From Octopus vulgaris (lineage: Eukaryota), in NCBI GenBank assembly GCA_951406725.2, contig OX597815.1, positions 23,374,001 to 23,438,000 of the forward strand: a stretch of DNA of 64,000 nucleotides. Reading direction: 5' to 3'. The notes under the pieces are model-generated. The model ran no database searches. It had not been told where the DNA came from and worked only from the letters and a program-made list of their open reading frames with translations. The translations under genes and the position numbers were made by a program. Within the stretch, counting starts at the first letter, position 1. Every line of letters begins with the position of its first letter. Positions 1,164-44,137 of this stretch are shown in pieces.

Positions 1164-1635
1164 CATGGTCAGCCAGCATCTTTTCCTTCCTCACCAAATC
1201 ATTACAGTAGTAAAAACAATGATTTCATGACAGAATCAAAAGCAGGCCAAATAGAGGCAATGCCAGATATAAAGGAAATCAGGGTAAAAAGGAATATAGC
1301 AGAAGTATCACGAGCAACAGATATACCTGCAAATGCGCAACCATTTAATGCACAAGGAAATTTAATATCATCAACTGTATCTTATGCTTCAGCATTACTT
1401 GCCGCACTTGAGAATGGAACAAAACTCAATGATTCTGAACTAACAACTCCATTCAGTGCATCTCGGAATACAATGTTAATTAACACAACTGGAGAAGACG
1501 CTTCTTATGTAACAGCATCGACCAATGACACTGAGAATGTAACACAGTTTGACACACAAACACGATCAGTGAACACATCTGAAGAAACATCAACTCCATA
1601 TGTAACCACAACACCTTTAATAACTACGACTACTA
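1164..1635 (+). CDS. RPTP exon: Ser/Thr-rich mucin-like extracellular segment (HGQPASF...PLITTTT)
   Basis: Long poly-T tract + TAG acceptor at 1161-1163; open frame shared with ORF 1227..1673; six N-x-S/T sequons; GTAAG donor at 1636, phase 1. Confidence 0.8.
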
Positions 1636-8124: not shown

Positions 8125-8815
8125 AACTTGTAGAGTAGGATATGGCCTAGTCACCAGTATAGTTAATCAGATTGTCCCCTTGTAAGTCATACCCAACAAC
8201 TGGTGTAGCAACATTATAGTCAACTGTTACAAAGGTAAAGATGATGCTTTAGACAGAAATAATTACAGAGGTATCAGATCGCTGGACCAAGTGATGAAAG
8301 TTACAGAAAGGATCATAGCTCAACTAATTAGGAAGAGGGTTAGTCTAGATGAGATGCAGTTTGTGTTTGTGCCTGGAAGGAACACTACTGATGCTATCTT
8401 CTTGGACTAGCAACTGCAGGGGAAGTATTTAGCCAAAAATAAACTTCTGTACTTGGTTCTTGTCAACATGGAGAAATCCTTGGGTGGGGACACTGACTCT
8501 CTTATCTGGTGGGCAATGCTGAAGCCAGGAATAGATGAGTGGTTGGTGAGAGCTGTACAGGCCATGTACAGGATGGAGTCTGAGGTGAAAGTCGGCAATG
8601 ATATTAGCTTGGAATTTAGTGTATAGTTAGGAGTTCACCAAGGATTGGCTCACAGACCCTTCTTGTTTATCATAGTTCTCTAGGCCATAACAGAGGGATT
8701 TAAAACTGGCTGCCCACAGGAGCTCTTCTACACCGATGACCTTATTCTTATAGCTGAATGATGACCAGAACTAGGGAAGAAATTACAGGTGTGGAACAAG
8801 GTCTGGGATCAAAAG
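8125..8815 (+). mobile_element. RTE-clade LINE RT fragment, truncated at the exon-cassette junction
   Basis: Colinear with the RTE copy at ~37260-37946 (GRNTTDAIF, LFYTDDL, W.QGL.SK). Confidence 0.8.
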
Positions 8816-9659
8816 GCTAGAATAGAGATAACAGACCGCCAGCGGAATCTATTGTTCTCAACAATATCTCTATCCTTCTGGCTAGTTTTGGATAGTTATA
8901 AAAACAAGAACTCCGTAAGCCAAAGCAGTTAGTGAGAGCGACTGACAGAGAGGCGGCTGACCAGCTCAAACAAAATACTGTCTCTACTGAGATAACTTCA
9001 GAGAGTGACAACAATGTAGAAAGTGTCTCATCCCACACTCTCTCATTTTCATTAGCTCCCTTTCTTTTCTCTGCAACATCACCATATCTCTATATATATA
9101 CTACTTTGTGTACACTCATATACAGGCCAAAATTAACTCTTTTTACCTTGCATGCTTTACAAACTGTGTTATACTATTACACTAGCCTACCTGTTGTGGT
9201 ATGGTAGATATTAAAGTAACGGTAAATAAATATTTCTTTACAACCACTATCACTGTTCTCTTCCATCTTGCATACTGGCAACCAACACCTTAACAACGAA
9301 CCGTTACACTTTCTTGAGTGTTTTCCAGTGTAATTTTTCTTTATATTTTCAGTTTGTTTTGTTACCCTCCAACACATTTTGATCATAAACATTCTTGTTA
9401 AACTTGAAACTTTGATGCATGTTCTCCCAAAATGTACCTAATTCATTTTTAAAGAAAGAAATCTTTTGATATCTTCCTAAAATTATGAATAATAAATATA
9501 ATAACAATAATATATTATCATAAGAGAAAATCTAATAGCATTATCTAACAATTCAGAAATGCATTATTTCTGTTGTTGAGTTCCATAAATTTGAATATAA
9601 TAATTATTATAAGTTGGTGTACACAGTTTAATTTTTATAATTAATGTGTTTCATTGCAG

Positions 9660-9782
9660 AATCGGCACTTAATGAGAAATGTGAAAGAGATACATCCTGC
9701 ATAGATGAATTTGCCATTTGCAGAAATCAAAAGTGTGTCTGTCAAGATGATTATTTTGAAGATGAATCTAAGTGTAAAAAAA
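9660..9782 (+). CDS. RPTP exon: 6-Cys EB/EGF-like module copy 1 (SALNEKCERDTSCIDEFAICRNQKCVCQDDYFEDESKCKK)
   Basis: TTTCATTGCAG acceptor, GTAAGT donor, 123 nt phase 1-1, C-x5-C-x6-C-x4-C-x-C-x10-C. Confidence 0.85.
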
Positions 9783-9864
9783 GTAAGTTAAAAACAACAG
9801 AACTTTGACATTGAACTATAAAAAGGATTACAATTACTCTTAGAAATAATTTTAAAAAAATAGA

Positions 9865-11080
9865 GGTGTAGGTAGAAACTCTATAAGATGTACCCAGTGT
9901 AAGCTATGGACACATAAGAGGTGCAGTAATATCAAGGGAAGGCTAATTGAGAAGATAGTTTTTGTATGTGGCAGATGCTCGGGAGCGATAAACACTGAAA
10001 ATGTGCAGAGACCAACTTCTGCCACATTCCAGGGAGAAAAACTAGAAGTAGTTGATAGCTTCCGTTACTTAGGGACCAAGTCAGTAGCGGAGGCGGGTGC
10101 ACTGAAAGTGTAGCTGCTAGAATAAGAATAGCTTGGGCAAAGTTCAGAGAGCTCTTACCTCTGCTGGTGACAAAGGGCCTCTCACTCAGAGTAAAAGGTA
10201 GACTGTATGACACTTGTGTATGAACAGCCATGCTACATGGCAGTGAAACATGGGCTGTGACTGCTGAGGTCATGTGTAAGCTCGCAAGGAATGAAGCCAG
10301 TATGATCTGATGGATGTGTAATGTCAGTGTGCATACTAGACAGAGTGTAAGTACCTCGAGAGAAAAGTTGGACCTAAGAAGCATTAGATGTGATGTGCAA
10401 GAGAGACGACTGCGCTGGTATGGTCACGTGGTGAGAATGGATGAGGATAGCTGTGTGAAAAAGTGCCACACCCTAGCTGTTGAGGGAACCTGTGGAAGCA
10501 GTAGACCTGGGATGAAGTGGTGAAGTACGACCTTCGAACTTTAGGCCTCACCAAGGAAATGACTAGCGACTGAGACTTTTGGAAATATGCTGTGCTTGAG
10601 AAGACGCGGCAAGCCAAATGAGACCATAATCTGTGGCTTATGCCAGGAGCGTCACCAGCCCGCTTATGCATACCTTTTCCTTCTTTGGTCACTAAACTCT
10701 GCTTGCGAAGACCTGTTGAGGCAAGTGAAATCGAAATCAAAATCAAAATCAAATTCGATGACTGGCATCCGTGCTAGCGAGGTGCAAAGAGCACCATATA
10801 AGGGTGATCGTTGACAGAGCGGCTAACCGGCTTCCGTACCAGTGGCACATAAAAGGGCACCATTTGAGTGTGATCGTTACCAGCATCGCCTTACTGGCAC
10901 CTGTGCTGGTGGCATGTGTAAAAAGATTCGAGCGAGGTCGTTGCCAGTACCACCTGACTGGGTCCCGTGCTGGTGGCACGTAAAAAGCACCCACTTACAA
11001 TCTCAGAGTGGTTGGCATTAGGAAGGGCATCCAGCTGTAGAAACTCTTCCAGATCAAGATTGGGGCCTGGTGCAGCCATT
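9865..11080 (+). mobile_element. RTE-clade LINE 3' part plus 3' UTR repeats (duplicated at ~18019-19230)
   Basis: GVGRNSIRCTQCKLWTHKRC and ERRLRWYGHVVRM motifs; GTGGCACGTAAAAAGCACC repeats. Confidence 0.85.
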
Positions 11081-12650
11081 TGAGTAATTTCCCAAAAATC
11101 AGGGTTTTTATAACTACTCATATCCGAATTCTAAGAACTGTATTTCGTGAAAGATTTCTTTTACGAAAGTTTAGAATTCATATATGGGCAGTAATTTTAA
11201 CCATTGGGATACCAACAATTGTGCTTGTTCGGGCAAACGAACATTATGTAATATTGCCACCTTTTATGACTTGCTACATAGGTATAATGTACATATACCA
11301 CATTATGAGACTATGAGGTAATATATGTGAAATTAAGTTCCTATTTCTTGCTAATCAATCTGTATTGTTGACTTGTCGAGTAATACATTCAAAGTGTTTG
11401 TGAAAGAGACAATAAAATGAGTTTAGATTGGAATAACTGAAGACTGAAGGTTGTTTTTCATATATTAACCATAAAATTTAATTCTTCAAGTTCTCTTAGG
11501 AAGATGAAAGTGCATTAATGTTTGTTGGGAGGAAGGTGAGAGTGGGAGAAATGTGAGAGTAGGAGGATGGTAAGAGTGGGAGGAAGGTGAGTGAATGCCA
11601 CTGATCAAACTGCTTGCAAAGCAGTGAAAAGAACAACAATTATGATGCCACTACCTACAATGGTGATGATGGTGGTTAAGATGGTGTATCATACTGTATA
11701 TTAAAAAGATGGTGGTGTTTCAGTATACAGTACAGTATGTGTAGCATAATTTTAACTATTATTAGAGCACTAGTGTAGCTAGAGGGGAACAGAGGGTTTG
11801 TCTTCCCTGTACAGCACTTTTATGGGTGTGGTGCCACTTTTGGGTCTGCTGTAGGCAATATGTACTTTTTGTGACAGCCCAGGTATGGCAGACTGAAGGG
11901 CCACCCTGGATGGCAGACACGCTAGCTACACTATTGTATTAGAGTGGTGCATTGGTAGAGTGGCAGTACATCAGCCTTTGATATTTAGTTGCATATCTTT
12001 ACATTCTGAATTAAAATCTTCCCAAGATCAGCTTTACGTTTCATTTTTCTAGAGTCAATAAAATAAGTTCCAGTATTCTGCTGAACCTAGTATAAGCAAC
12101 AGTCCCTTTTCCTCATAAATATGTGGTCCTTGTGTTTCCATTATGAATGATAATTTAAATTATCAGCTAATGAGATGTGATTTATACTTTAGTTTAACTG
12201 CTCACCTCTACACATACATATGTAGCAAACCTAGGTATTCTCTGTGTCTCAACGTGATCCTGGTGCTAAACTTACAGCCATCCTAGGCTGCATCCAGAGA
12301 AACACAACCTGAATGATTGGTATGAAGTCACTCGTAATACTCCAACCTCTGGCTCATTGACATGCCGTCTCCTCTCTGCATTATCTACCACTGCTACAAT
12401 GACCTCTGCTGTCAGAACCGACAGATCTTGTGTTACTTCCATTCAGTCTTTCCTCACTTACCTCTTCCACTCTCATTACCCATAATATGTCTCCACAGGG
12501 TTCATATTAATTACTTTACCAATTCCTTTCTTGCTGAAGCGTTGGCACTCAGGAATTCTGTCCCTGTTCATGTTTCTTCTGTAGCTGTTGTCTTAAAATT
12601 GTTCAAGAAGAATATCATATGTATCTCACTAGTCTGAGAGGGGCTACTAT

Positions 12651-13035
12651 GGAGGCGCAATGGCCCAGTGGTTAGGGCAGCAGACTCGCGGTCATAGGAT
12701 CGTGGTTTCGATTCCCAGACCGGGCGTTGTGAGTGTTTATTGAGCGAAAAACACCTAAAGCTCCACGAGGCTCCGACAGGGGATGATGGTGATCCCTGCT
12801 GTACTCTTTCACCACAACTTTCTCTCACTCTTACTTCCTATTTCTGTTGTACCTGTATTTCAAAGGGCCGGCCTTGTCACTCTCTGTGTCACGCAGAATA
12901 TCCCCGAGAACTACGTTAAGGGTACACGTGTCTGTGGAGTGTTCAGCCACTTACACGTTAATTTCACGAGCAGGCTGTTCTGTTGATTCGGATCAACCGG
13001 AACCCTCGTCGTCGTAACCAACGGAGTGCTTCCAT
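12651..13035 (+). mobile_element. tRNA-derived SINE family C (GGAGGCGCAATGGCCCAGTGG...GGTTTCGATTCCC)
   Basis: A and B boxes; copies at 20801-21198 and 52782-53163. Confidence 0.85.
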
Positions 13036-13365
13036 GGCTATAAGTGCAGCTCATTTCTCCAGACCAAACCAAAAATATAAAATAGTGTTTCTGTTATCAG
13101 CAGTATAGCGTAAATTTCACCATATATGTCAAAATTGTGATGCAAGAAACCCTAACTAAATGTACAATAGCAAACATAAGCAAGCTGGAAAAGAAAAATT
13201 AACCTCAGTGTTTTAATTTTAAGAAATATACTAATAATAGTGGGCTGCTAATGGTAGCTTGTATTAAACATGTATTACAATGAAAGCTTAATTATTCCAT
13301 ACTTTATGTTGCTGCATACTAGCATGTTGTAATGTGTATGTTACCAGTAATAGTGTTTGGTTTAA

Positions 13366-13586
13366 CCCTTTAGTGTTCGCATTATTCTACCCAAATTAAT
13401 GCTTTTTCATCCTCGTAGTTTTGAACTAATCATGCATTATCTTGTAGCTATGAGATTTTGATGAGGTAGCTGTTAATTTTTAAAACGATATTGTAGGGTT
13501 GGTGTGAGAGACCAAATCTGGCCAGTTTGACCATAAAACAGGCAGAATACTTTAGGCCGGATATGGCCGGTTTAAATGCTAAAGGG
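13366..13586. mobile_element. TTAA-flanked MITE (piggyBac-like termini CCCTTTAG...CTAAAGGG)
   Basis: TTAA on both sides and terminal inverted repeats; other copies at 21531-21751, 45587-45807 and 55730-56515. Confidence 0.75.
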
Positions 13587-13895
13587 TTAAATCACCAGTG
13601 TATATGTTTGTTTTACAGTATAGATGATTGGTATTGATATGTTGTAGAGAAGGGCGGTGAATGAAGTGTTTATTAAAGGAATAATTGATGAATCTTCTCT
13701 ACGACATAAAAATATTTATTTACTTTAAACTACAAAAAATCAACAAAACAGTCTCAGCAATCGAGCGAGCGAGTGAGAGAGGGAGAGAGTTAAACAGGGT
13801 AAATTTTTAAGCTTGTTGATGTGTGTGTATGTTAGTGTCAGGCAAGCTGTGCTCTTCTGGTGATGTTGACCAGGGTTAAAGGTATGTATATGTAT

Positions 13896-14130
13896 AGGCG
13901 GCGAGCTGGCAGAAATGGTAGCACGCCGGGCGAAATGCTTTGCAGTATTTCGTCTGCCGTTACGTTCTGAGTTCAAATTCCGCCGAGGTCGACTTTGCCT
14001 TTCATCCTTTCGGGGTCGATTAATTAAGTACCAGTTACACACTGGGGTCGATATGATCGACTTAATCCGTTTGTCTGTCCTTGTTTGTCTCTTCTGTGTT
14101 TAGCCCCTTGTAGGTAGTAAAGAAATAGGT
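13896..14130 (+). mobile_element. SINE-like family B copy (duplicated at 22066-22300)
   Basis: Reverse complement of 4845-5066. Confidence 0.75.
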
Positions 14131-14429
14131 ATGTATATGGATTTGTACGACAAAGCATGGCTGGTTATGGTAGTTAATCCCTGTTGCTGCTACTGCAGTT
14201 GTGACTAACAACATATCATAGTGATGATAGTGAACATGTTTAACCATAGGATACCAATAACCTATGTTGAATAATCTCTCAGTCTCTATTTTAATAAAGG
14301 AGGTTAGAAGAATGAGTTGAGGATAGAGGGATCAGGAAATATCAAGCTGACATTTCTGGTTGACAAGAAAATACCAACAAAAGGTCTTTTCTTCATTTCC
14401 CAATGAAACAAATATCTTGAAAAATAAGG

Positions 14430-15643
14430 GTGTGACTGGTCCCTCCAGGGAGCTGGCCCTGCTCAATATATAGAAAAATAGTAGTTGAAACTCCATACAG
14501 TGTACCCAGTGCAAGCTATGGACACATAAGAAGTGCAGCAGTGTCACAGGAAGGTTAACCCTTTCGTTACTAACCCGGCCGTACCCAACCGAAAAATTAT
14601 TTTTTGGTTCATAATACCAACCCGGCCGTGAGAACCTGTTGTTATTTAAATGTAAATTTGAACCCAAATCTCACCCTTTCGTTACTAACCCGGCCGTATA
14701 GAGAAAGTAGTCTGTGTGTGTGGCAGGTGTGCAGGTACAATAAACACAAAGAATGTACAGAATATAGCTTTCCTCAAATGTCTGGTGGGTGGGGTTCCTT
14801 AGAAGTAGTAGATAACTTCTGTTACCTAGGTAACCAAGTTAACATTGGAGGAGGACGCTCTGGCAGTGTAGTTGCTAGAGTAAGAATGGGCTGACAAAGT
14901 TGGTAACAAAGGGGGTTTCCTTCAGCATGAAAGGCAGATTGTATGCTATCTGTATATGAATAGCGATGCTCCATGACAGTGAATCATGGGATGTGACTAT
15001 AGAGGATAAGTGAAGGCTTGAAAGAAATGAAGCCAGCATACACCACTGGATGGGTAATGTCACTGTGCATGTGTGACAGAGTGTAAATAATTTAAGAAAA
15101 TAACCAGGTACAAGAGGCATCAGATGTAATGTGCATGAGAGAAGACTGCGAGTGTGGTTATTGGATGTGTATGGATGAGAACAACTGCATAAAGAAGTAC
15201 CTATCTCTAAGCTGTAGAGGGAGCCTGTAGAAGGGGTAGATAGAGGAAGATGTAGGACAGAGTGGTGAGAAAGGATCTTCAGATATTGAGCCACAATGAG
15301 GGGATGACAAGGGAATGAGACTTCTGGCAATTTGGTGTGCTTGAGAAGACATGTCAAGCTAAGTAAAATTGTGGCCATCCATACATAGAGGTATGTCCTT
15401 TATGGCCATCACTCCCTCTCCTCATCAAGCACACATAATTCTGTCCTATGGCAAAACTCACCCCCAACCCATCTTACCAAAACCTCTATCACCCGCTATA
15501 TGCCCCTCCAGTTCCTCTCAATGTCACTTCTTATCTCTAAATACATCCCCTCACACTGTTATGATACATCTTTAATTCATCTGTGTGACTCATACCCTTC
15601 TACCCACTATTCCCTGTAGGTAGGCCCTCACTCTCTCTCTCTC

Positions 15644-15694
<51 letters not shown>

Positions 15695-16133
15695 GCTTTT
15701 TTATCCTATTGGGGTAGCCAAATATTTCTTGTCACAAAACAGCTATCTGTATCCTCTGATCATACCCCAACCTCTCGCCTGTCACATGACCACTTCTCTC
15801 AGCTGAGACATCTTTGTCTTGCAAGCCACTTGGTGACCTTGTGGGTACTGGCACCATGTAAAAAGCATCCATGCTGGTACTACATAGGAAGTACCTGTGC
15901 CATGCTGGTGTCACATAAAAAGCACTTGTGCCAGTACTACGTAATAAGCACCCAGTACACTCTCTGGAGTGGCTGTCATTTGGAAGGTCATCTAGCTATA
16001 AAACCCATGTTTGAACAGGCAACTGGGACCTGGTTCAGCCCTCTGGCTTGCTAACTCTTGTTGAACCATCCAGCCTATGCCGGCATGGAAAATGGATGAT
16101 AAATGATGATGATGATGACGACGATAATGATGA
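14430..16133 (+). mobile_element. Older degenerate RTE 3' fragment with (GAT)n tail (duplicated at ~22600-24297)
   Basis: WPCS...NSIQCTQCKLWTHK and LEVVDNFCYLGNQV remnants; tail CCGGCATGGAAAATGGATGATAAATGATGATG. Confidence 0.7.
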
Positions 16134-16450
16134 AGGCCTGATTTAGTAGTATTAGCAGACAAAGTGAATAGAAAGAGCCAGGTAGTTGATTTTACAGTCA
16201 CAAATGATGAGAAAGTCAACTTCAAAATATAGAAAAAATATCAAAGTACCAGGACATAGCCATTGAGTTACAGAGGTTATGGAAAATGTGGGCAAAATAC
16301 ATTCCAGCAGTTAAATGTGCATCAGGAACTATCTTTAGATATATGAACAGATGCATAGAGGAAATAGGCATAAAACTTAGTTTAGTGCAGTTCCAGAAAA
16401 CAGTATTAGTATGGTCAGCTAGGATACTTAGGAAAGGTTTCGTCATCTAA
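16134..16450 (+). mobile_element. R4/Dong-like LINE C-terminal restriction-like endonuclease remnant (duplicated at 24298-24614)
   Basis: RPDLVV...VVDFTV...KYQDIAIEL.RLW...QKTVL..SARILRK. Confidence 0.7.
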
Positions 16451-16628
16451 GGTTAGAAATTTTGGCAAAAGACTGGCAATTTGGTGGGATGGGGTAAGTC
16501 AATTACATCGACCCCAGTGTTCAACAGGTAATCCCTTATTAACATAGAAACACAGAAATTCAAAATATGAATGAGGAAATCCTGCATTCCTTCTTAGATA
16601 CAAAAAAAAAAAAACATTATTATTATTA

Positions 16629-16683
<55 letters not shown>

Positions 16684-17813
16684 AGTAATTGTTTCCAATT
16701 TTAGTACAAGGCCAGCAATTTTGGATAGGGGATAAGTTGATTACATCAACTGCAGTACTCAAGTGGTACTTATTTTATTGACCCAGGTATAGTGTGGATT
16801 CAATCCTCGATGGCCAAATTTCACTTAACAGTTCAACAGCACTTTTCTCACGGTAAAACGGTAGTTTTCCTGTGAGTGACAGCTGTTACATTTGCCAGAT
16901 GCCTTTGCTAAGCAGAATAATATCTTTGCCACTTGACCCTTCTAACCTCTTCTATTTCACCAAAAGCTAGAATAGACATAACAGACCACCAACGAAATCT
17001 ATTGTTCTCAACAATATGTCTATCCTTCTGGCTGGTTTTGGATAGTTAGAAAAACAAGAACTCCCTCTGTAAGCCAAAGCAGTTAGTGAGAGCGACTGAC
17101 AGAGAGGCGGCTGACCAGCTCAAACAAAATACTGTCTCTACTGAGATAACTTCAGAGAGTGACAACAATGTAGAAAGTGTCTCATCCCACACTCTCTCAT
17201 TTTCATTAGCTCCCTTTCTTTTCTCTGCAACATCACCATATCTCTATATATATACTACTTTGTGTACACTCATATACAGGCCAAAATTAACTCTTTTTAC
17301 CTTGCATGCTTTACAAACTGTGTTATACTATTACACTAGCCTACCTGTTGTGGTATGGTATATATTAAAGTAACGGTAAATAAATATTTCTTTACAACCA
17401 CTATCACTGTTCTCTTCCATCTTGCATACTGGCAACCAACACCTTAACAACAAACCGTTACACTTTCTTGAGTGTTTTCCAGTGTAATTTTTCTTTATAT
17501 TTTCAGTTTGTTTTGTTACCCTCCAACACATTTTGATCATAAACATTCTTGTTAAACTTGAAACTTTGATGCATGTTCTCCCAAAATGTACCTAATTCAT
17601 TTTTAAAGAAAGAAATCTTTTGATATCTTCCTAAAATTATGAATAATAAATATAATAACAATAATATATTATCATAAGAGAAAATCTAATAGCATTATCT
17701 AACAATTCAGAAATGCATTATTTCTGTTGTTGAGTTTCATAAATTTTAATATAATAATTATTATAAGTTGGTGTACACAGTTTAATTTTTATAATTAATG
17801 TGTTTCATTGCAG

Positions 17814-17936
17814 AATCGGCACTTAATGAGCATTGTGAAAGAGATACATCCTGCATAGATGAATTTGCCATTTGCAGAAATCAAAAGTGTGTCTGTCAAG
17901 ATGATTATTTTGAAGATGAATCTAAGTGTAAAAAAA
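17814..17936 (+). CDS. RPTP exon: 6-Cys module copy 2 (K>H relative to copy 1)
   Basis: Same splice sites and length as 9660-9782; codon AAA>CAT. Confidence 0.8.
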
Positions 17937-20800
17937 GTAAGTTAAAAACAACAGAACTTTGACATTGAACTATAAAAAGGATTACAATTACTCTTAGAAA
18001 TAATAAAAAAAAAAATAGAGGTGTAGGTAGAAACTCTATAAGATGTACCCAGTGTAAGCTATGGACACATAAGAGGTGCAGTAATATCAAGGGAAGGCTA
18101 ATTGAGAAGATAGTTTTTGTGGCAGATGCTCGGGAGCGATAAACACTGAAAATGTGCAGAGACCAACTTCTGCCACATTCCAGGGAGAAAAACTAGAAGT
18201 AGTTGATAGCTTCCGTTACTTAGGGACCAAGTCAGTAGCGGAGGCGGGTGCACTGAAAGTGTAGCTGCTAGAATAAGAATAGCTTGGGCAAAGTTCAGAG
18301 AGCTCTTACCTCTGCTGGTGACAAAGGGCCTCTCACTCAGAGTAAAAGGTAGACTGTATGACACTTGTGTATGAACAGCCATGCTACATGGCAGTGAAAC
18401 ATGGGCTGTGACTGCTGAGGTCATGTGTAAGCTCGCAAGGAATGAAGCCAGTATGATCTGATGGATGTGTAATGTCAGTGTGCATACTAGACAGAGTGTA
18501 AGTACCTCGAGAGAAAAGTTGGACCTAAGAAGCATTAGATGTGATGTGCAAGAGAGACGACTGCGCTGGTATGGTCACGTGGTGAGAATGGATGAGGATA
18601 GCTGTGTGAAAAAGTGCCACACCCTAGCTGTTGAGGGAACCTGTGGAAGCAGTAGACCTGGGATGAAGTGGTGAAGTACGACCTTCGAACTTTAGGCCTC
18701 ACCAAGGAAATGACTAGCGACTGAGACTTTTGGAAATATGCTGTGCTTGAGAAGACGCGGCAAGCCAAATGAGACCATAATCTGTGGCTTATGCCAGGAG
18801 CGTCACCAGCCCGCTTATGCATACCTTTCCTTCTTTGGTCACTAAACTCTGCTTGCGAAGACCTGTTGAGGCAAGTGAAATCGAAATCAAAATCAAAATC
18901 AAATTCGATGACTGGCATCCGTGCTAGCGAGGTGCAAAGAGCACCATATAAGGGTGATCGTTGACAGAGCGGCTAACCGGCTTCCGTACCAGTGGCACAT
19001 AAAAGGGCACCATTTGAGTGTGATCGTTACCAGCATCGCCTTACTGGCACCTGTGCTGGTGGCATGTGTAAAAAGATTCGAGCGAGGTCGTTGCCAGTAC
19101 CACCTGACTGGGTCCCGTGCTGGTGGCACGTAAAAAGCACCCACTTACAATCTCAGAGTGGTTGGCATTAGGAAGGGCATCCAGCTGTAGAAACTCTTCC
19201 AGATCAAGATTGGGGCCTGGTGCAGCCATTTGAGTAATTTCCCAAAAATCAGGGTTTTTATAACTACTCATATCTGAATTCTAAGAACTGTATTTCGTGA
19301 AAGATTTCTTTTACGAAAGTTTAGAATTCATATATGGGCAGTAATTTTAACCATTGGGATACCAACAATTGTGCTTGTTCGGGCAAACGAACATTATGTA
19401 ATATTGCCACCTTTTATGACTTGCTACATAGGTATAATGTACATATACCACATTATGAGACTATGAGGTAATTTATGTGAAATTAAGTTCCTATTTCTTG
19501 CTAATCAATCTGTATTGTTGACTTGTCGAGTAATACATTCAAAGTGTTTGTGAAAGAGACAATAAAATGAGTTTAGATTGGAATAACTGAAGACTGAAGG
19601 TTGTTTTTCATATATTAACCATAAAATTTAATTCTTCAAGTTCTCTTAGGAAGATGAAAGTGCATTAATGTTTGTTGGGAGGAAGGTGAGAGTGGGAGAA
19701 ATGTGAGAGTAGGAGGATGGTAAGAGTGGGAGGAAGGTGAGTGAATGCCACTGATCAAACTGCTTGCAAAGCTGTGAAAAGAACAACAATTATGATGCCA
19801 CTACCTACAATGGTGATGATGGTGGTTAAGATGGTGTATCATACTGTATATTAAAAAGATGATAGTGTTTCAGTATACATTACAGTATGTGTAGCATAAT
19901 TTTAACTATTATTAGAGCACTAGTGTAGCTAGAGGGGAACAGAGGGTTTGTCTTCCCTGTACAGCACTTTTATGGGTGTGGTGCCACTTTTGGGTCTGCT
20001 GTAGGCAATATGTACTTTTTGTGACAGCCCAGGTATGGCAGACTGAAGGGCCACCCTGGATGGCAGACACGCTAGCTACACTATTGTATTAGAGTGGTGC
20101 ATTGGTAGAGTGGCAGTACATCAGCCTTTGATATTTAGTTGCATATCTTTACATTCTGAATTAAAATCTTCCCAAGATCAGCTTTACGTTTCATTTTTCT
20201 AGAGTCAATAAAATAAGTTCCAGTATTCTGCTGAACCTAGTATAAGCAACAGTCCCTTTTCCTCATAAATATGTGGTCCTTGTGTTTCCATTATGAATGA
20301 TAATTTAAATTATCAGCTAATGAGATGTGATTTATACTTTAGTTTAACTGCTCACCTCTACACATACATATGTAGCAAACCTAGGTATTCTCTGTGTCTC
20401 AACGTGATCCTGGTGCTAAACTTACAGCCATCCTAGGCTGCATCCAGAGAAACACAACCTGAATGATTGGTATGAAGTCACTCGTAATACTCCAACCTCT
20501 GGCTCATTGACATGCCGTCTCCTCTCTGCATTATCTACCACTGCTACAATGACCTCTGCTGTCAGAACCGACAGATCTTGTGTTACTTCCATTCAGTCTT
20601 TCCTCACTTACCTCTTCCACTCTCATTACCCATAATATGTCTCCACAGGGTTCATATTAATTACTTTACCAATTCCTTTCTTGCTGAAGCGTTGGCACTC
20701 AGGAATTCTGTCCCTGTTCATGTTTCTTCTGTAGCTGTTGTCTTAAAATTGTTCAAGAAGAATATCATATGTATCTCACTAGTCTGAGAGGGGCTACTAT

Positions 20801-21198
20801 GGAGGCGCAATGGCCCAGTGGTTAGGGCAGCAGACTCGCGGTCATAGGATCGCGGTCATAGGATCGTGGTTTCGATTCCCAGACCGGGCGTTGTGAGTGT
20901 TTATTGAGCGAAAAACACCTAAAGCTCCACGAGGCTCCGACAGGGGATGATGGTGATCCCTGCTGTACTCTTTCACCACAACTTTCTCTCACTCTTACTT
21001 CCTATTTCTGTTGTACCTGTATTTCAAAGGGCCGGCCTTGTCACTCTCTCTGTCACGCTGAATATCCCCGAGAACTACGTTAAGGGTACACGTGTCTGTG
21101 GAGTGTTCAGCCACTTACACGTTAATTTCACGAGCAGGCTGTTCTGTTGATTCGGATCAACCGGAACCCTCGTCGTCGTAACCAACGAAGTGCTTCTA
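20801..21198 (+). mobile_element. SINE family C copy with a private 14-bp tandem duplication
   Basis: Matches 12651-13035 except for an extra TCGCGGTCATAGGA. Confidence 0.85.
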
Positions 21199-23812
21199 TG
21201 GCTATAAGTGCAGCTCATTTCTCCAGACCAAACCAAAAATATAAAATAGTGTTTCTGTTATCAGCAGTATAGCGTAAATTTCACCATATATGTCAAAATT
21301 GTGATGCAAGAAACCCTAACTAAATGTACAATAGCAAACATAAGCAAGCTGGAAAAAAAAAAATTAACCTCAGTGTTTTAATTTTAAGAAATATACTAAT
21401 AATAGTGGGCTGCTAATGGTAGCTTGTATTAAACATGTATTACAATGAAAGCTTAATTATTCCATACTTTATGTTGCTGCATACTAGCATGTTGTAATGT
21501 GTATGTTACCAGTAATAGTGTTTGGTTTAACCCTTTAGTGTTCGCATTATTCTACCCAAATTAATGCTTTTTCATCCTCGTAGTTTTGAACTAATCATGC
21601 ATTATCTTGTAGCTATGAGATTTTGATGAGGTAGCTGTTAATTTTTAAAACGATATTGTAGGGTTGGTGTGAGAGACCAGATCTGGCCAGTTTGACCATA
21701 AAACAGGCAGAATACTTTTGGCCGGATATGGCCGGTTTAAATGCTAAAGCGTTAAATCACCAGTGTATATGTTTGTTTTACAGTATAGATGATTGGTATT
21801 GATATGTTGTAGAGAAGGGCGGTGAATGAAGTGTTTATTAAAGGAATAATTGATGAATCTTCTCTACGACATAAAAATATTTATTTACTTTAAACTACAA
21901 AAAATCAACAAAACAGTCTCAGCAATCGAGCGAGCGAGCGAGGGAGAGAGGGAGAGAGTTAAACAGGGTAAATTTTTAAGCTTGTTGATGTGTGTGTATG
22001 TTAGTGTCAGGCAAGCTGTGCTCTTCTGGTGATGTTGACCAGGGTTAAAGGTATGTATATGTATAGGCGGCGAGCTGGCAGAAATGGTAGCACGCCGGGC
22101 GAAATGCTTTGCAGTATTTCGTCTGCCGTTACGTTCTGAGTTCAAATTCCGCCGAGGTCGACTTTGCCTTTCATCCTTTCGGGGTCGATTAATTAAGTAC
22201 CAGTTACACACTGGGGTCGATATGATCGACTTAATCCGTTTGTCTGTCCTTGTTTGTCTCTTCTGTGTTTAGCCCCTTGTAGGTAGTAAAGAAATAGGTA
22301 TGTATATGGATTTGTACGACAAAGCATGGCTGGTTATGGTAGCTAATCCCTGTTGCTGCTACTGCAGTTGTGACTAACAACATATCATAGTGATGATGGT
22401 GAACATGTTTAACCATAGGATACCAATAACCTATGTTGAATAATCTCTCAGTCTCTATTTTAATAAAGGAGGTTAGAAGAATGAGTTGAGGATAGAGGGA
22501 TCAGGAAATATCAAGCTGACATTTCTGGTTGACAGGAAAATACCAACAAAAGGTCTTTTCTTCATTTCCCAATGAAACAAATATCTTGAAAAATAAGGGT
22601 GTGACTGGTCCCTCCAGGGAGCTGGCCCTGCTCAATATATAGAAAAATAGTAGTTGAAACTCCATACAGTGTACCCAGTGCAAGCTATGGACACATAAGA
22701 AGTGCAGCAGTGTCACAGGAAGGTTAACCCTTTCGTTACTAACCCGGCCGTACCCAACCGAAAAATTATTTTTTGGTTCATAATACCAACCCGGCCGTGA
22801 GAACCTGTTGTTATTTAAATGTAAATTTGAACCCAAATCTCACCCTTTCGTTACTAACCCGGCCGTATAGAGAAAGTAGTCTGTGTGTGTGGCAGGTGTG
22901 CAGGTACAATAAACACAAAGAATGTACAGAATATAGCTTTCCTCAAATGTCTGGTGGGTGGGGTTCCTTAGAAGTAGTAGATAACTTCTGTTACCTAGGT
23001 AACCAAGTTAACATTGGAGGAGGACGCTCTGGCAGTGTAGTTGCTAGAGTAAGAATGGGCTGACAAAGTTGGTAACAAAGGGGTTTCCTTCAGCATGAAA
23101 GGCAGATTGTATGCTATCTGTATATGAATAGCGATGCTCCATGACAGTGAATCATGGGATGTGACTATAGAGGATAAGTGAAGGCTTGAAAGAAATGAAG
23201 CCAGCATACACCACTGGATGGGTAATGTCACTGTGCATGTGTGACAGAGTGTAAATAATTTAAGAAAATAACCAGGTACAAGAGGCATCAGATGTAATGT
23301 GCATGAGAGAAGACTGCGAGTGTGGTTATTGGATGTGTATGGATGAGAACAACTGCATAAAGAAGTACCTATCTCTAAGCTGTAGAGGGAGCCTGTAGAA
23401 GGGGTAGATAGAGGAAGATGTAGGACAGAGTGGTGAGAAAGGATCTTCAGATATTGAGCCACAATGAGGGGATGACAAGGGAATGAGACTTCTGGCAATT
23501 TGGTGTGCTTGAGAAGACATGTCAAGCTAAGTAAAATTGTGGCCATCCATACATAGAGGTATGTCCTTTATGGCCATCACTCCCTCTCCTCATCAAGCAC
23601 ACATAATTCTGTCCTATGGCAAAACTCACCCCCAACCCATCTTACCAAAACCTCTATCACCCGCTATATGCCCCTCCAGTTCCTCTCAATGTCACTTCTT
23701 ATCTCTAAATACATCCCCTCACACTGTTATGATACATCTTTAATTCATCTGTGTGACTCATACCCTTCTACCCACTATTCCCTGTAGGTAGGCCCTCACT
23801 CTCTCTCTCTCA

Positions 23813-23858
<46 letters not shown>

Positions 23859-24793
23859 ACTTTTTTATCCTATTGGGGTAGCCAAATATTTCTTGTCACA
23901 AAACAGCTATCTGTATCCTCTGATCATACCCCAACCTCTCGCCTGTCACATGACCACTTCTCTCAGCTGAGACATCTTTGTCTTGCAAGCCACTTGGTGA
24001 CCTTGTGGGTACTGGCACCATGTAAAAAGCATCCATGCTGGTACTACATAGGAAGTACCTGTGCCATGCTGGTGTCACATAAAAAGCACTTGTGCCAGTA
24101 CTACGTAATAAGCACCCAGTACACTCTCTGGAGTGGCTGTCATTTGGAAGGTCATCTAGCTATAAAACCCATGTTTGAACAGGCAACTGGGACCTGGTTC
24201 AGCCCTCTGGCTTGCTAACTCTTGTTGAACCATCCAGCCTATGCCGGCATGGAAAATGGATGATAAATGATGATGATGATGACGACGATAATGATGAAGG
24301 CCTGATTTAGTAGTATTAGCAGACAAAGTGAATAGAAAGAGCCAGGTAGTTGATTTTACAATCACAAATGATGAGAAAGTCAACTTCAAAATATAGAAAA
24401 AATATCAAAGTACCAGGACATAGCCATTGAGTTACAGAGGTTATGGAAAATGTGGGCAAAATACATTCCAGCAGTTAAATGTGCATCAGGAACTATCTTT
24501 AGATATATGAACAGATGCATAGAGGAAATAGGCATAAAACTTAGTTTAGTGCAGTTCCAGAAAACAGTATTAGTATGGTCAGCTAGGATACTTAGGAAAG
24601 GTTTCGTCATCTAAGGTTAGAAATTTTGGCAAAAGACTGGCAATTTGGTGGGATGGGGTAAGTCAATTACATCGACCCCAGTGTTCAACAGGTAATCCCT
24701 TATTAACATAGAAACACAGAAATTCAAAATATGAATGAGGAAATCCTGCATTCCTTCTTAGATACAAAAAAAAAAAAAACATTATTATTATTA

Positions 24794-24851
<58 letters not shown>

Positions 24852-25981
24852 AGTAATTGTTTCCAATTTTAGTACAAGGCCAGCAATTTTGGATAGGGGA
24901 TAAGTTGATTACATCAACTGCAGTACTCAAGTGGTACTTATTTTATTGACCCAGGTATAGTGTGGATTCAATCCTCGATGGCCAAATTTCACTTAACAGT
25001 TCAACTGCACTTTTCTCACGGTAAAACAGTAGTTTTCCTGTGAGTGACAGCTGTTACATTTGCCAGATGCCTTTGCTAAGCAGAATAATATCTTTGCCAC
25101 TTGACCCTTCTAACCTCTTCTATTTCACCAAAAGCTAGAATAGACATAACAGACCGCCAACAAAATCTATTGTTCTCAACAATATGTCTATCCTTCTGGC
25201 TGGTTTTGGATAGTTATAAAAACAAGAACTCCCTCTGTAAGCCAAAGCAGTTAGTGAGAGCGACTGACAGAGAGGCGGCTGACCAGCTCAAACAAAATAC
25301 TGTCTCTACTGAGATAACTTCAGAGAGTGACAACAATGTAGAAAGTGTCTCATCCCACACTCTCTCATTTTCATTAGCTCCCTTTCTTTTCTCTGCAACA
25401 TCACCATATCTCTATATATATACTACTTTGTGTACACTCATATACAGGCCAAAATTAACTCTTTTTACCTTGCATGCTTTACAAACTGTGTTATACTATT
25501 ACACTAGCCTACCAGTTGTGGTATGGTAGATATTAAAGTAACGGTAAATAAATATTTCTTTACAACCACTATCACTGTTCTCTTCCATCTTGCATACTGG
25601 CAACCAACACCTTAACAACAAACCATTACACTTTCTTGAGTGTTTTCCAGTGTAATTTTTCTTTATATTTTCAGTTTGTTTTGTTACCCTCCAACACATT
25701 TTGATCATAAACATTCTTGTTAAACTTGAAACTTTGATGCATGTTCTCCCAAAATGTACCTAATTCATTTTTAAAGAAAGAAATCTTTTGATATCTTCCT
25801 AAAATTATGAATAATAAATATAATAACAATAATATATTATCATAAGAGAAAATCTAATAGCATTATCTAACAATTCAGAAATGCATTATTTCTGTTGTTG
25901 AGTTCCATAAATTTGAATATAATAATTATTATAAGTTGGTGTACACAGTTTAATTTTTATAATTAATGTGTTTCATTGCAG

Positions 25982-26104
25982 AATCGGCACTTAATGAGAA
26001 ATGTGAAAGAGATACATCCTGCATAAATGAATTTGCCATTTGCAGAAATCAAAAGTGTGTCTGTGAAGATAAATATTTTCGTCTTCGAACTAAGTGTGAA
26101 AAAA
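25982..26104 (+). CDS. RPTP exon: 6-Cys module copy 3 (SALNEKCERDTSCINEFAICRNQKCVCEDKYFRLRTKCEK)
   Basis: Same acceptor and donor, 123 nt phase 1-1, all Cys retained. Confidence 0.85.
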
Positions 26105-26210
26105 GTAAGTTAAAAACAACGGAACATTGACATTGAACTACAGAAAGGACTACAATTACTCTTAGAAATAATTTTTTAAAAATAGATAAAAGTTACAGAT
26201 ATATTGAAAG

Positions 26211-30850: not shown

Positions 30851-31334
30851 TGATGATGGCGGTGACAACGATGGCGATGATGAAAGCAACAATAATGGTG
30901 ATAATGTTTTTCATTTCTATATATCAGTTGTGTCATAATCTTCAACATCAAACTGACAATTTATCATTTATTTGAATGTATAAAAATCAGTATAACAATA
31001 ATTTAATTTCTCTAGTTTGATTGTCCTAATAACTTTTGACTCTTCACAGAGCTAGCCTATGGTAAAAACTGTTCCGTGGAAGAGTGTCTTGATAAAAGGG
31101 CCCACTGTAATGAGCAACACAGGTGTGATTGTTTTGAGGTCTATTTTTGGAAACACGGAAAATGTGTAGACAGTAAGTAAACGTGTTATGATTGATTGAT
31201 TCTAGTTTCAGCTCACGAGCTGTGGCCATGCTGGGGCACTGCCATATGAGGACATTAAATTTTCTTCTTGTCAACTCTCTTTTAATTTAAGTTCAAAAAT
31301 AGAAAACCTTGAGGATATATTCCGTGTATTCTTT

Positions 31335-33494: not shown

Positions 33495-33623
33495 AGAAAG
33501 GTTTTGATGAAAAATGTGAAGAAGGGGATCAGTGTAAGGCTCGTAATGCCTATTGTTCCACTGAAACAAAGAGATGTACTTGCTCTGACAATTACAAGCA
33601 AAGTGAAACCATCTGTGTAAAAA
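33495..33623 (+). CDS. RPTP exon: divergent 6-Cys module 4 (KGFDEKCEEGDQCKARNAYCSTETKRCTCSDNYKQSETICVK)
   Basis: TTTCAG acceptor, GTAAGT donor, 129 nt phase 1-1, same Cys pattern with a 2-residue longer loop. Confidence 0.85.
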
Positions 33624-36414: not shown

Positions 36415-36508
36415 TTGTTTTTCCCTATTGGTGGCTTGGAATTATCATTGCTATTCTCATTCTGGTCATATTAGTTTTCATTTATTTATTCCTCCGTCAG
36501 TTGAAACA
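36415..36508 (+). CDS. RPTP exon: transmembrane helix (IVFPYWWLGIIIAILILVILVFIYLFLRQLK)
   Basis: TTTACAG acceptor, GTAAGT donor; ~21 hydrophobic residues followed by basic residues; phase 1-2. Confidence 0.88.
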
Positions 36509-36963
36509 GTAAGTATCCAATTAAATTGTAGACTTTTATCATTGCTGAATCTCATACTGTTATTTTTAAAAGTAACTAATTATAGCATAAAATACTGTGT
36601 ATGTTAAAGGATATTGTAATGTAATATTACACTCTGAATGTCATCATTATCAACATCATCATCATCATCATCATCATCATATGGTTGTTGTCCATGCTGG
36701 CATGGATGGTGGCACGTAAAAAGCACCAACCGATCGGGGCCGTTGCCAGCTTCGCCTGGCACATAAAATGCACCCACTACACTCACAGAGTGGTTGGCAT
36801 TAGGAAGGGCATCCAGCTGTAGAAACACTGCCAGATCAGACTGGGCCAGGTGCAGCCTCCTGGCTTCCCAGACCCCAGTCAAACCGTCCAGCCCATGCTA
36901 GCATGGAAAGGGGACGTTAAATGATGATGATATATATTCTGTTGTATCTGGGGAGAATCATTT

Positions 36964-37196
36964 TCTTTTTGTGCCTTATAATTTAACACACTCACCGGTA
37001 AAATTTCCACTTATTCCTTATTTTTATTTTCCTAAAATTTTCATTGTGTCTTGCAACCTTTTCAATAGTCTTGAAAATAGTCTCTTCAATAGTCTTGAAA
37101 ATGTTGCAAGACGCAATGAAAATTTTAGGAAAATAAAAATAAGGAATAAGTGGAAATTTTATCGGTGAGTGTGTTAAATTATAAGGCACAAAAAGA
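36964..37196. repeat. Near-perfect ~230-bp palindrome (foldback MITE-like)
   Basis: TCTTTTTGTGCCTTATAATTTAACAC... / ...GTGTTAAATTATAAGGCACAAAAAGA; the ORF track gives near-identical peptides on both strands. Confidence 0.9.
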
Positions 37197-37204
37197 TAGC
37201 ATGC

Positions 37205-39282
37205 CAGCAGAAAGCTCCCATCAGGAATCACTGCTGAGATGCTTAAAATATTTGGTGGTGTGGGCTATGGCCTAGTCGCCCGCATTGTAAACCAGGTAGT
37301 TCATGATGGAGTCGTACCCAATGATTGGCATAGCTGCACCATAGTCAACTGCTACAAGGGTAAAGGTGATACTCTAGATAGAAATAACTACAGAAGTATC
37401 AAACTGCTGGAAAAGGTAATGAAGATCACAGAGAGGGTTATAGCCCATCTCATTAGGGAAAGAGTCTGCTTAGATGTGATGCAGTTCAGTTTTGTGCCAA
37501 GTAGAAGCACCACTGATGCTATATTCCTGGTTTGACAACTGCGCAGGAGAAATGCCTAGCTAAAGATAAAACCCTCTACTTAGCTTTTGTGGACTTGGAG
37601 AAAGCCTTTGACAGGGTCCCCCGATCCCTTATCTGGTGGGCGATGCGGAAACTGGGGATTGACGAATGGCTAATAAGGGCTGTACAGGCCCTATGTAGAG
37701 AGGCCATTAGTAAGGTTAGGATTGGAAATGAGTATAGTGAAGTATTCCAGGTAGAAGTAGGGTCCACCAAGGATCAGCCCTCAGTCCCTTTTTATTCATC
37801 ATAGTTCTCCAGGCAATTATAGAGGAATTCCAGATGGGTTTCCCCTGTGAGCTCCACTATGCTGATGACCTGGCCCTCATAGCAGAATCACTACTAGAAC
37901 TAGAGAATAAATTTTAGATGTGGAAGCAAGGTTTAGAATCAAAAGGCCTTAGAGTTAATGTAGAAAAGACCAAAGTTCTAGTAAGTAGGAAGGCGAACTC
38001 ATCACACACCCACTCAGGTAGGTGGCCCTGCTCGATCTGTAGAAAAGGTGTAAGTAGAAACTCCATAAAATGTACCCAGTGTAAGCTATGGACACATAAG
38101 AGGTGCAGCAACGTCAAAGGAAGATTAACCAGGAAGATAGCTTTCGTGTGCGGCACATGCACAGGGGCAATAGAACCACTGATGCTCCGAAAACAGATTC
38201 CATCACACTCCAGGGGGAGAAACTCAAAGTAGTTGATAGCTTCCGCTACCTAGGTAACCAAGTTAGTAGTTGGGGGTGGATGCTCTGAGAGTGTTACCAC
38301 TAGAATAAGAATAGCCTGGGAAAAGTTTAGAAAGCTTCTGCCCTTACTGGTGATAAAGGGTCTCTTGCTCAGAGTGAAAGGTAGATTGTATGATGCATGT
38401 GTGCGAACTGCCATGCTTCACAGCAGTGAAATATGGTCCATGTCTGCGGAGGAATGCGTAGGCCCGAAAGAAATGAAGCTAGCATGATCCACTGGATGTG
38501 TAATGTCAGTGTGCACACACGACAGAGTGTAAGCTCCCTGAGAGAAATGTTGGACATAAGAAGCATTGGATGTGGCATGCAAGAGAGATGTTTGCACTGG
38601 TATGGTCGTGTACTATGGATGGATGAGGAGAGATGTGTGAAGAAGTGCCACTCCCAAACAGTTTAAGGAATCTGGGGTAGAGGTGGACCCAGGAAGAAAT
38701 GGGATGAGGTGGTGAAGCATGACCTTCGAATGTTGGGCCTCACAGAGGCAATGACGAAAGACCGAGACCTCTGGAGATATGCTGTGACTGCAAAGACCTG
38801 ACAAATAATGTGAGTTCATGGCTGTATCCTACACCAGTTTCGCATAACCAGCTCCAGCCCATTCAAAAGTACCTTGGATCATGGGGTGACCTGCTGTGCT
38901 TGAGGAGTCCTATTGAGTCAAGAACATCAACATCAAAATGAAAATCAAATGGAAATTGTAGTTGTGCCAGTGGCACATAAAAAGCACCATCTGAACATGG
39001 CCGATGCCAGTGCCGCCTTGATTGGCCTCCATGCCGGTGGCACGTAAAAAGCATCAATTGTTTGTGGCTGTTGCCAGCCTCCTCTGGCCCCTGTGCTGGT
39101 GGCACGTAAAATGCACCCACTACACACACGGAGTGGTTGGCATTAGAAAGGGCATCCAGCTGTAGAAACACTACCAGATCAGACTGGAGCCTGGTGCAGT
39201 CTCCTGGCTTTCCAGACCCCAGTTGAACTGTCCAACCCATGCTAGCATGGAAAACGAATGTTAAATGATGATGATGATGATG
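37205..39282 (+). mobile_element. 5'-truncated RTE-clade LINE (RT, PHD-like Cys cluster, 3' UTR, (GAT)n tail)
   Basis: NNYRSIKLL, STTDAIF, AFVDLEKAFDRVP and YADDL motifs; frameshifted. Confidence 0.9.
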
Positions 39283-39350
39283 AAACCGAGGTTTATATAT
39301 ATATTTAAGAAAAATAATTATTAATTTATCCATCTCTATATCATTATATG

Positions 39351-39354
<4 letters not shown>

Positions 39355-39388
<34 letters not shown>

Positions 39389-39403
39389 GCATACATATAT
39401 ATA

Positions 39404-39485
<82 letters not shown>

Positions 39486-39537
39486 TATACATACATATAT
39501 CATATATACATATATATATGTACATACATATATATGG

Positions 39538-39575
<38 letters not shown>
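39355..39575. repeat. (TA)n-rich microsatellite
   Basis: Direct reading. Confidence 0.95.
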
Positions 39576-39578
<3 letters not shown>

Positions 39579-40676: not shown

Positions 40677-40736
40677 GACAACTGGCAACGTTAATTTCTT
40701 GAAATTAAGACCTTTTAAAACACTATCACATAAAAG
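40677..40736 (+). CDS. RPTP exon: juxtamembrane (TTGNVNFLKLRPFKTLSHK)
   Basis: CTTTCAG acceptor, AG/GTTGGT donor, 60 nt phase 2-2, open and phase-compatible with neighbours. Skippable in frame, so it is not required by the model. Confidence 0.65.
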
Positions 40737-42004: not shown

Positions 42005-42177
42005 GATTTTTTTCACGCTCAGAGTTGCTGAAGCATAGAATAAACTGCCTGCGTCAGTTGTTGACTGCCATGACACTGCATCTTTTAAGGCCCTCATGCT
42101 TTCCGAAATCCGCCGAAACTACACCTGATTATATATACACTTTAGATGAGTTGTAGTGCACCTGAGCACTGTACACA

Positions 42178-42216
<39 letters not shown>

Positions 42217-44072: not shown

Positions 44073-44137
<65 letters not shown>

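Follow-up and report, generated by a model that had tools for sequence, protein, structure and literature searches.

The human gene DMBT1 is one of the closest described counterparts of the locus analysed here: it has at least 7 SRCR domains per molecule through allelic variation, a CNV1 mutation rate of 0.7-2.7% per generation and, like our locus, tandem exon-plus-intron units, each of which contributes one in-frame extracellular domain rich in cysteine (PMC4851238). An intragenic exon duplication that lengthens the protein is also shared with human haptoglobin HP2, where 1.7 kb with exons 3-4 are duplicated (PMC7426911). Our locus is a receptor tyrosine phosphatase gene of Octopus vulgaris, located in a stretch of 64,000 nucleotides (the window; contig OX597815.1, positions 23,374,001 to 23,438,000) and encoding a mucin-like stalk, EB modules and one PTP domain. 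DMBT1 is secreted, with many units and proven polymorphism, whereas the octopus gene has one expansion (five vs four modules); and while HP2 reportedly arose by a non-homologous event, the break in the octopus gene falls within a paralogous cassette that was already there. We assign a probability of roughly 80% to the reading that an 8.15-kb duplication in this gene is real and likely goes back to one unequal crossover between two homogenised exon cassettes, A1 and A3, so that the receptor would have five EB modules instead of four.

All features lie on the forward strand. Exon 2 (1164..1635), which encodes the Ser/Thr-rich mucin-like stalk and ends in phase 1, was located by tblastn of the gene model P0002 and by its AG/GT ends. 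By tblastn we also placed the EB exons A1 (9660..9782, 41 codons), A2 (17814..17936, the added module), A3 (25982..26104), 4 (31050..31172) and 5 (33495..33623, approximate start), as well as the exons for the transmembrane and juxtamembrane parts, the single PTP domain and the acidic tail (36440..57820, approximate start). The exons of A1, A2 and A3 are each 123 bp long, bounded by AG...GT and in phase 1-1, and Pfam scored them at 28.3, 28.7 and 27.0 bits as EB (PF01683), all above the curated cut-off of 24.3; the gain of one in-frame 41-aa module, claimed in the preliminary description, is thus supported at the DNA level. Since splice sites and phase of A2 are intact, transcripts are predicted to be able to carry five modules. 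In run X12, RNA by our guess, depth was 55.5 over exon 2 (contig over 1208-1635), 27-111 over the EB exon and ~5 over introns; the EB exon is covered, and A2 letters or a usable joint were absent among the pieces listed.

The PTP domain, found once in the protein (PF00102), contains the WPD, VHCSAGVGRTG and Q-loop motifs, with KNRF replacing KNRY. In having one such domain the protein resembles R3-type receptor PTPs (Drosophila Ptp10D, PTPRO, PTPRJ, PTPRB), and Ptp10D was its best single-domain PDB match (233 bits). The ectodomains of R3 receptors are FN3 arrays, whereas the octopus ectodomain has EB modules and no FN3 by Pfam at E up to 0.1. A mucin-like stalk and ectodomain isoforms produced by exon skipping are shared with PTPRC/CD45; CD45, however, has tandem PTP domains (D1-D2) and FN3 repeats, unlike the one PF00102 stretch found here, and the database name PTPRC/CD45 for the octopus protein is a best-hit label. 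Word-index protein searches matched four Octopus proteins only. A Pfam EB search of the genome (G000) gave two matches on C18 and missed the gene's own exons, and is no family census. A literature search for LOC106876748 found nothing, and searches on octopus receptor tyrosine phosphatase, EB module or hemocyte tyrosine-protein phosphatase returned only unrelated matches; a search on crossover gave no papers. The duplication is of a familiar type, and the gene has been studied little.

By self-BLAST, 8812-18004 aligns with 16962-26172 at 98.84% identity over 9,221 columns and an offset of 8,150, which bears out the tandem duplication of 8.15 kb proposed earlier. Unit 1 (8812..16961, 8,150 bp; self-BLAST and unit alignment) and unit 2 (16962..25129, 8,168 bp; the same and depth) differ by 64 substitutions and 15 indel events, the 7.1 kb between the cassettes contributing 22 mismatches and 11 gap openings. 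Cassette A1 (8812..9863) consists of a truncated dispersed repeat (8812-9311), an intron, the EB exon and 80 bp of intron; A2 (16962..18018) is the junction copy, and A3 (25130..26185) the likely donor of A1 (8812-9864 vs 25130-26186, 96.8% identity by self-BLAST). Three left-hand motifs are common to cassettes 2 and 3 and different in cassette 1, while the 3' half of the exon and the RTE flank are common to cassettes 1 and 2. Among 22 informative sites (the 9758-9767 cluster taken as one site, sites from 9850 onward excluded), A2 joins A3 at 7/8 of the first eight and A1 at 12/12 of the last twelve (max-chi2 15.1, permutation p = 0.0003), so that motif sharing and site statistics agree with the preliminary description of cassette 2 as cassette 3 type on its left and cassette 1 type on its right. 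Seven substitutions left of 9850 occur in A2 alone, and two of these fall in the same codon of the exon (K to H). The putative crossover interval (17069..17896) starts after a 4-bp insertion common to A2 and A3 and ends before the first exon 3' site common to A2 and A1; sites inside it are private or variable between runs. This hybrid structure, with its switch in a near-identical tract, supports the suggested unequal crossover of cassette 1 with cassette 3. Any A-B-A-B-A array gives a middle cassette with mixed flanks; those of A2 indicate a crossover only in view of the greater age and the divergence of the paralogues A1 and A3.

Differences between A1 and A3 number 8 in 103 bp at the left end (8812-8914), 4 in 828 bp in the centre (8915-9742; 0.5%), 12 in 40 bp in the 3' part of the exon and 5 in 67 bp of the intron to its right. 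Non-coding ends and central intron are clearly distinct (13/170 vs 3/745, p = 7e-8), and the length of the low-difference tract was reached in 0/100,000 permutations, in line with the near-identical central ~800 bp and more diverged ends noted before. Because the non-coding ends differ by 7.6% (95% CI 4-13%) and the central 828 bp by 0.5%, A1 and A3 are old paralogues whose centre was likely homogenised by conversion, supplying the substrate for the crossover; the prior homogenisation by gene conversion that had been assumed is supported by this contrast. Across species, the 3' parts of the modules cluster by position, with vulgaris A1 matching bimaculoides A1 at 11/15 and A3 at 7/15; the 5' parts cluster by species, vulgaris A1 agreeing with A3 at 25/26 and with bimaculoides A1 at 10/26. 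The divergence of the ends matches the ~8% between O. vulgaris and O. bimaculoides (PMC6472339), which would date A1 to about that split. At letters 9755-9767, A1 agrees with A3 26077-26089 at 10/13 positions when the latter is reverse-complemented, vs 5/13 directly, and the cluster of differences in the exon 3' part may represent one micro-inversion; since this could explain the cluster, positive selection is not claimed from A1/A3 exon differences alone.

Judging from its flanks, A1 interrupts the remnant of an RTE-type LINE, likely as a pasted copy of A3. The left part of the remnant (8135..8811), a reverse-transcriptase region with stops, and the right part (9864..10917) are colinear after a gap of ~100 bp. 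In 8/12 RTE copies colinearity extends across A1 with a gap of 79-120 bp, and both A1/RTE joins have 4-6 bp of microhomology. A dispersed repeat of ~680 bp, present also before A2, is whole upstream of exon A3 (24952..25633) and cut at A1: 15/17 genomic copies align from 24952-24957 on the A3 side, vs 17/17 that align only from 8807-8819 at A1. Against a pasted A1, the RTE colinearity could stem from two separate insertions, and 4/12 copies did not show it; furthermore, a distant homologue (P0012) has four modules of which the first is acidic, so that A1 could predate the proposed pasting.

The preliminary description had left room for a haplotype-derived false duplication, in which the assembler joined two haplotypes of a single-copy region via the near-identical cassette core. 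The 22 mismatches in 7.1 kb fall within the 1.1% heterozygosity of O. vulgaris (PMC6472339), relatives have four modules, and no spanning read was seen, the longest contig pieces being <1 kb and none spanning cassette A2. In false duplications depth falls to the haploid level and a gap is frequent (PMC9516828), yet the window is free of N letters and a scaffold gap between the units is therefore absent. Depths, which are means of assembled contigs and not copy number, were taken from the best 8 of >100,000 pieces per run, in two mappings with different likeness thresholds (90, 97). In run X3, flank contigs had depths of 75.3, 52, 59.4, 59.2, 51.9 and 59.4 (median 59.3) and unit contigs of 143.8, 120.3, 127.3, 105.9, 101.1, 123.8 and 107.7 (median 120.3), a ratio of 2.03 (p = 0.0017). 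X3 carries letters of both units, with changes from unit-1 to unit-2 letters or back inside its contigs. For unit, shared core and A2-only letters, a homozygous duplication predicts depths of 119, 178 and 59 in X3 and a false duplication 59, 119 and 30; observed were 120, 197 and 56-57, the A2-only letters thus being at flank depth. The unit/flank ratio was 1.94 in X2 and 1.62 in X1. With the unit at 2.0x and not 1x the flank, X3 contradicts the false duplication, which we regard as very improbable; the duplication most likely did not arise in the assembly. The core/unit ratio of X3 (1.64) is nearer that of a heterozygous duplication (1.67) than of a homozygous one (1.5), but heterozygosity is disfavoured, as it needs a flank depth of 80 (seen 59) and A2-only letters at 40 (seen 56-57). 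Flank contigs of X3 carry other letters, and the flank is thus diploid if X3 is one animal. X3 is possibly the source animal, and would then be uninformative on duplication frequency. Flank pieces had a higher AT content than those of the unit. In X1, a flank piece at GC 0.42 and a unit piece at GC 0.41 had equal depths (24.5 and 24.1), so this run may be single-copy for the unit.

A real duplication could instead have formed on one chromatid by replication template switching or break repair, using the same homology and followed by drift of the units. That such repair acts here is indicated by two likely templated insertions with microhomology in the gene, A1 in the RTE and a second one at 33788-35513; the breakpoint, however, falls in 828 bp at 99.5% identity and leaves no scar, the usual mark of homologous exchange, and although sequence alone fits both routes, we consider template switching unlikely. 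A true accordion would involve recurrent gain and loss, in which alleles with 3, 4 and 5 modules segregate and the near-identical core is a trace of this cycle and not of plain conversion. Unit/flank ratios do vary between runs (2.03, 1.94, 1.62), X4 has a core/unit ratio of 1.82, near the single-copy value of 2, and X1 shows a further mosaic exon; but X4, at a depth of ~4, lacks a flank value, GC content confounds X1, and only one expansion and no deletion allele was seen in the runs. The 1.6x of X1 and the 1.8 of X4 are only hints of length differences between alleles, and we entertain recurrence as a tentative idea, one that is compatible with, not opposed to, the unequal crossover. From the accordion-like expansion proposed initially, one expansion can be retained, but not its repetition.

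EB modules number four in the O. sinensis (P0009) and O. bimaculoides (P0004) proteins, both of which have A1 and A3, and five in the O. vulgaris gene model; annotated isoforms by exon skipping have 3, 4 or 5 modules in O. vulgaris and 3 or 4 in O. sinensis. The PTP domain is identical to that of O. sinensis (231/231) and nearly so to that of O. bimaculoides (218/231), vs only 21/41 to 26/44 for the EB modules in the latter comparison. In the preferred reading, an unequal crossover, events would have begun roughly when vulgaris and bimaculoides separated: 1.05 kb of DNA containing the A3 exon may then have been pasted into the RTE remnant 8 kb upstream, replacing ~100 bp and giving rise to A1. 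Conversion then presumably brought A1 and A3 to 99.5% identity over their central 828 bp, a pattern that is seen directly, and a misaligned A3 x A1 crossover in this tract, probably between homologous chromosomes, would have doubled the interval and created the hybrid A2. Transcripts with five modules would become possible, with three or four by skipping, and module number is predicted to affect how far the ectodomain reaches or how avidly it binds.

The mechanism is textbook and the gene is the more interesting part. New here are the unusually fast divergence of the EB modules, A1 in the RTE and the mosaic exon of X1. The locus offers a compact, datable case of module gain, with pasted exon, homogenisation and crossover readable in 18 kb, and shows that a 99%-identical tandem repeat in this assembly should not be purged as a haplotig. 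It is speculative, and in our judgement rather unlikely, that the protein serves the octopus in immune or self/non-self recognition, with a frozen PTP domain and an ectodomain diversified at three levels at once: recurrent unequal crossover would vary module number, short conversion tracts under positive selection would vary module sequence, and exon skipping would act on top of both. Should number and sequence of the modules prove polymorphic, the gene would be a candidate for a recognition receptor.

The window, which holds no N, carries an array of the order A1-B1-A2-B2-A3, in which three cassettes of ~1.05 kb (A1 to A3) alternate with two 7.1-kb spacers (B1 and B2). Self-BLAST of the window bore out the tandem duplication claimed in a preliminary description: 8812-18004 recurs at 16962-26172 with 98.84% identity and an offset of 8,150, and 25130-26186 matches 8812-9864 at 96.8%. 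Between unit 1 (8812-16961) and unit 2 (16962-25129) there are 64 substitutions and 15 indel events; a comparison restricted to the spacers gives 22 mismatches and 11 gap openings. The middle cassette A2 (16962-18018) had been described as a recombinant of cassettes 3 and 1, and its informative sites agree, joining it to A3 at 7 of the 8 leftmost and to A1 at all of the last 12 (n = 22; permutation p = 0.0003); the three left-hand motifs named in support follow the pattern reported, and 7 substitutions left of 9850 are private to A2. Since mixed flanks of the middle cassette are expected in any A-B-A-B-A array, the argument for a crossover hinges on A1 and A3 being the older paralogues.

Exon 2 of the host gene matches four proteins of O. 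vulgaris, O. sinensis and O. bimaculoides named receptor-type tyrosine phosphatase. The exons of the gene model P0002 (861 aa) were each placed on the + strand; the first lies 2.6 kb ahead of the window, and the alignment reaches 57820. The protein comprises a signal peptide, a stalk (28% Ser/Thr), EB modules, a transmembrane helix, a single PTP domain bearing the WPD, signature and Q-loop motifs, and an acidic tail. The name PTPRC/CD45 is a label only: the octopus protein has just one PTP domain, and among single-domain PDB entries Drosophila Ptp10D matches it best. In all three Octopus species the phosphotyrosine-recognition loop (P0002 residue 490) reads KNRF, not KNRY. Each cassette contains one 123-bp EB exon of phase 1-1 with AG/GT ends, scoring above the Pfam EB cut-off. 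Five modules are present in P0002, four in P0005 and three in P0001 (all O. vulgaris models), four or three in O. sinensis, and four each in O. bimaculoides and the distant homologue P0012; none was found in the Argonauta hians orthologue P0011, whose ectodomain carries tandem 10-residue Asn/Thr-rich repeats instead. Two more EB-module matches lie on another contig (G000:C18:52837545-52841052). A further model, P0007, joins a SENP8-like protease to this receptor, a fusion that may be an annotation artefact because its first 185 residues were unmatched within 100 kb upstream.

An assembly artefact had been proposed for checking by depth. Of 24 sequencing runs, all available as assembled contigs, we used five: contigs of X1-X4 were aligned to 16700-23700, and those of X1, X2, X3 and X12 to 1165-12700, with different likeness thresholds; depths are means of assembled contigs, not copy numbers, and are based on the contigs listed, 8 pieces per run. 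In the listed unit contigs of X3, every difference from the window is a unit-1 letter, and the contigs alternate between the units; X3 therefore contains units of both types, and it may represent the source animal. Its median depth is 59.3 in the flank (6 listed contigs) and 120.3 in the unit (7 contigs), a ratio of 2.03 (p = 0.0017). At this flank depth a false duplication predicts 59 for the unit, 119 for the near-identical cassette core and 30 for A2-only letters, a heterozygous duplication 89, 148 and 30, and a homozygous one 119, 178 and 59; observed were 120, 197 and 56-57. A false duplication, for which the available text of PMC9516828 gives haploid-level depth and gaps as marks, failed on the unit and on the A2-only letters. 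The searched flank pieces are old repeats, with listed copies mostly 70-84% identical. Flank pieces are more AT-rich than the unit pieces; a GC-matched pair in X1 gave no unit excess. The searched genome contains unit piece 20225-20799 in two exact copies, and for one unit piece the depth is raised by a third copy at 33788-34539. The unit/flank ratio of contig means is 1.94 in X2 and 1.62 in X1, and core/unit depth in X4, without a flank measure, is 1.82. By contig mean depths the duplication is real in X3 and probably in X2; the X1 and X4 values may hint at a multi-allelic locus whose module number differs between animals.

A homogenised cassette centre with diverged ends, also part of the preliminary description, was recovered: A1 and A3 differ at 8/103 bp on the left, 4/828 in the centre, 12/40 in the exon 3' part and 5/67 in the following intron (non-coding ends vs central intron, p = 7e-8). 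The first 26 module residues group by species (vulgaris A1 vs A3 25/26, vs bimaculoides A1 10/26), the last 15 by position (vulgaris A1 vs bimaculoides A1 11/15, vs A3 7/15). An A1-like X1 contig (9279-9890) has five changes in 31 exon bases and one in the remaining 581 (p = 1.4e-6); all five alter residues, four as in O. sinensis A3. This suggests a short conversion tract, but the mosaic can also be a chimera of a collapsed contig. Further exon variants occur in X2. Between exons A1 and A3, 9755-9767 and 26077-26089 match at 10/13 positions in reverse complement and 5/13 directly, likely a 13-bp micro-inversion; both residue types also occur in O. bimaculoides.

A ~680-bp dispersed repeat is whole upstream of A3 (alignments begin at 24952-24957 in 15/17 copies) and cut at 8812 before A1, where alignments begin only at 8807-8819 (17/17). 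When the RTE pieces to the left and right of A1 were compared with 12 RTE copies, 8 showed them to be colinear apart from a gap of 79-120 bp; microhomology of 4-6 bp is seen at both A1/RTE joins. The simplest reading is that one RTE received a pasted copy of the A3 region, which became A1; alternatively, the flanks of A1 may represent two separate RTE insertions. The A1/A3 end divergence of 7.6% (95% CI 4-13%) fits the vulgaris-bimaculoides divergence of ~8% in alignable regions, as given in the available part of PMC6472339, and A1 is present in both species. A1 might be older than a pasted copy of A3 implies, as the distant homologue P0012 hints.

Within 33788-35513, copies of intron 11280-12043 (94%) and of exon 2 (1169-1655, 97.7%) meet at a 3-bp microhomology; a LINE fragment at 34880-35376, marked by a 4-bp target duplication, interrupted the segment afterwards. 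The joined copies are likely a second templated insertion in the gene, and the exon 2 copy likely a pseudo-exon because it is out of phase with the preceding exon. Across 11323-11730 vs 19473-19880, unit 2 agrees with the intron copy (33831-34226) at all five unit 1/unit 2 substitutions; a 12-bp piece present in both units is absent from the copy and from the X1 and X2 contigs. Exon 2 of X12, vulgaris-like in all else, has a 6-bp deletion at 1375, where O. sinensis is without two residues; the two species may share this polymorphism. Elsewhere lie short arrays of 100-bp period (59173-59583, 57111-57292, 55225-55425) and a dispersed repeat, old and at least 2 kb long (5069-7094; full-length copies ~76% identical, strong strand skew).

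The further EB exons EB4 and EB5, both outside the converted cassettes, differ from O. bimaculoides at 38/85 residues and at least 20% of non-synonymous sites, compared with 2.5% for the PTP domain and 7% for the tail. This exceeds neutral divergences of 7.6% (p = 4e-8), 12% (p = 0.001) and 15% (p = 0.04) and suggests positive selection on EB4/EB5, as far as sequence comparison goes, the neutral levels being assumed and the 8% figure coming from alignable regions.

The array, hybrid A2, homogenised tract, depth excess and intact splice sites were observed, and the tested features of a duplication by homologous recombination are present. A3 would have misaligned with A1 and crossed over between 17069 and 17896. 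The spacer divergence of 0.3% lies within the heterozygosity of 1.1% stated for O. vulgaris in the available text of PMC6472339, and exchange between homologues would yield such divergence at once, so that it cannot date the event. In X12, taken by guess as RNA, exon 2 and the EB exon are covered well above introns; A2 letters were not seen in its contigs, aligned to 1165-12700. Nothing on this gene was found in the literature searched, most subscription journals falling outside it. As far as the available texts describe them, the DMBT1 SRCR copy-number change (PMC4851238) and the haptoglobin exon duplication (PMC7426911) work alike. The event is likely a duplication by homologous recombination, and a receptor with a five-module ectodomain is predicted.
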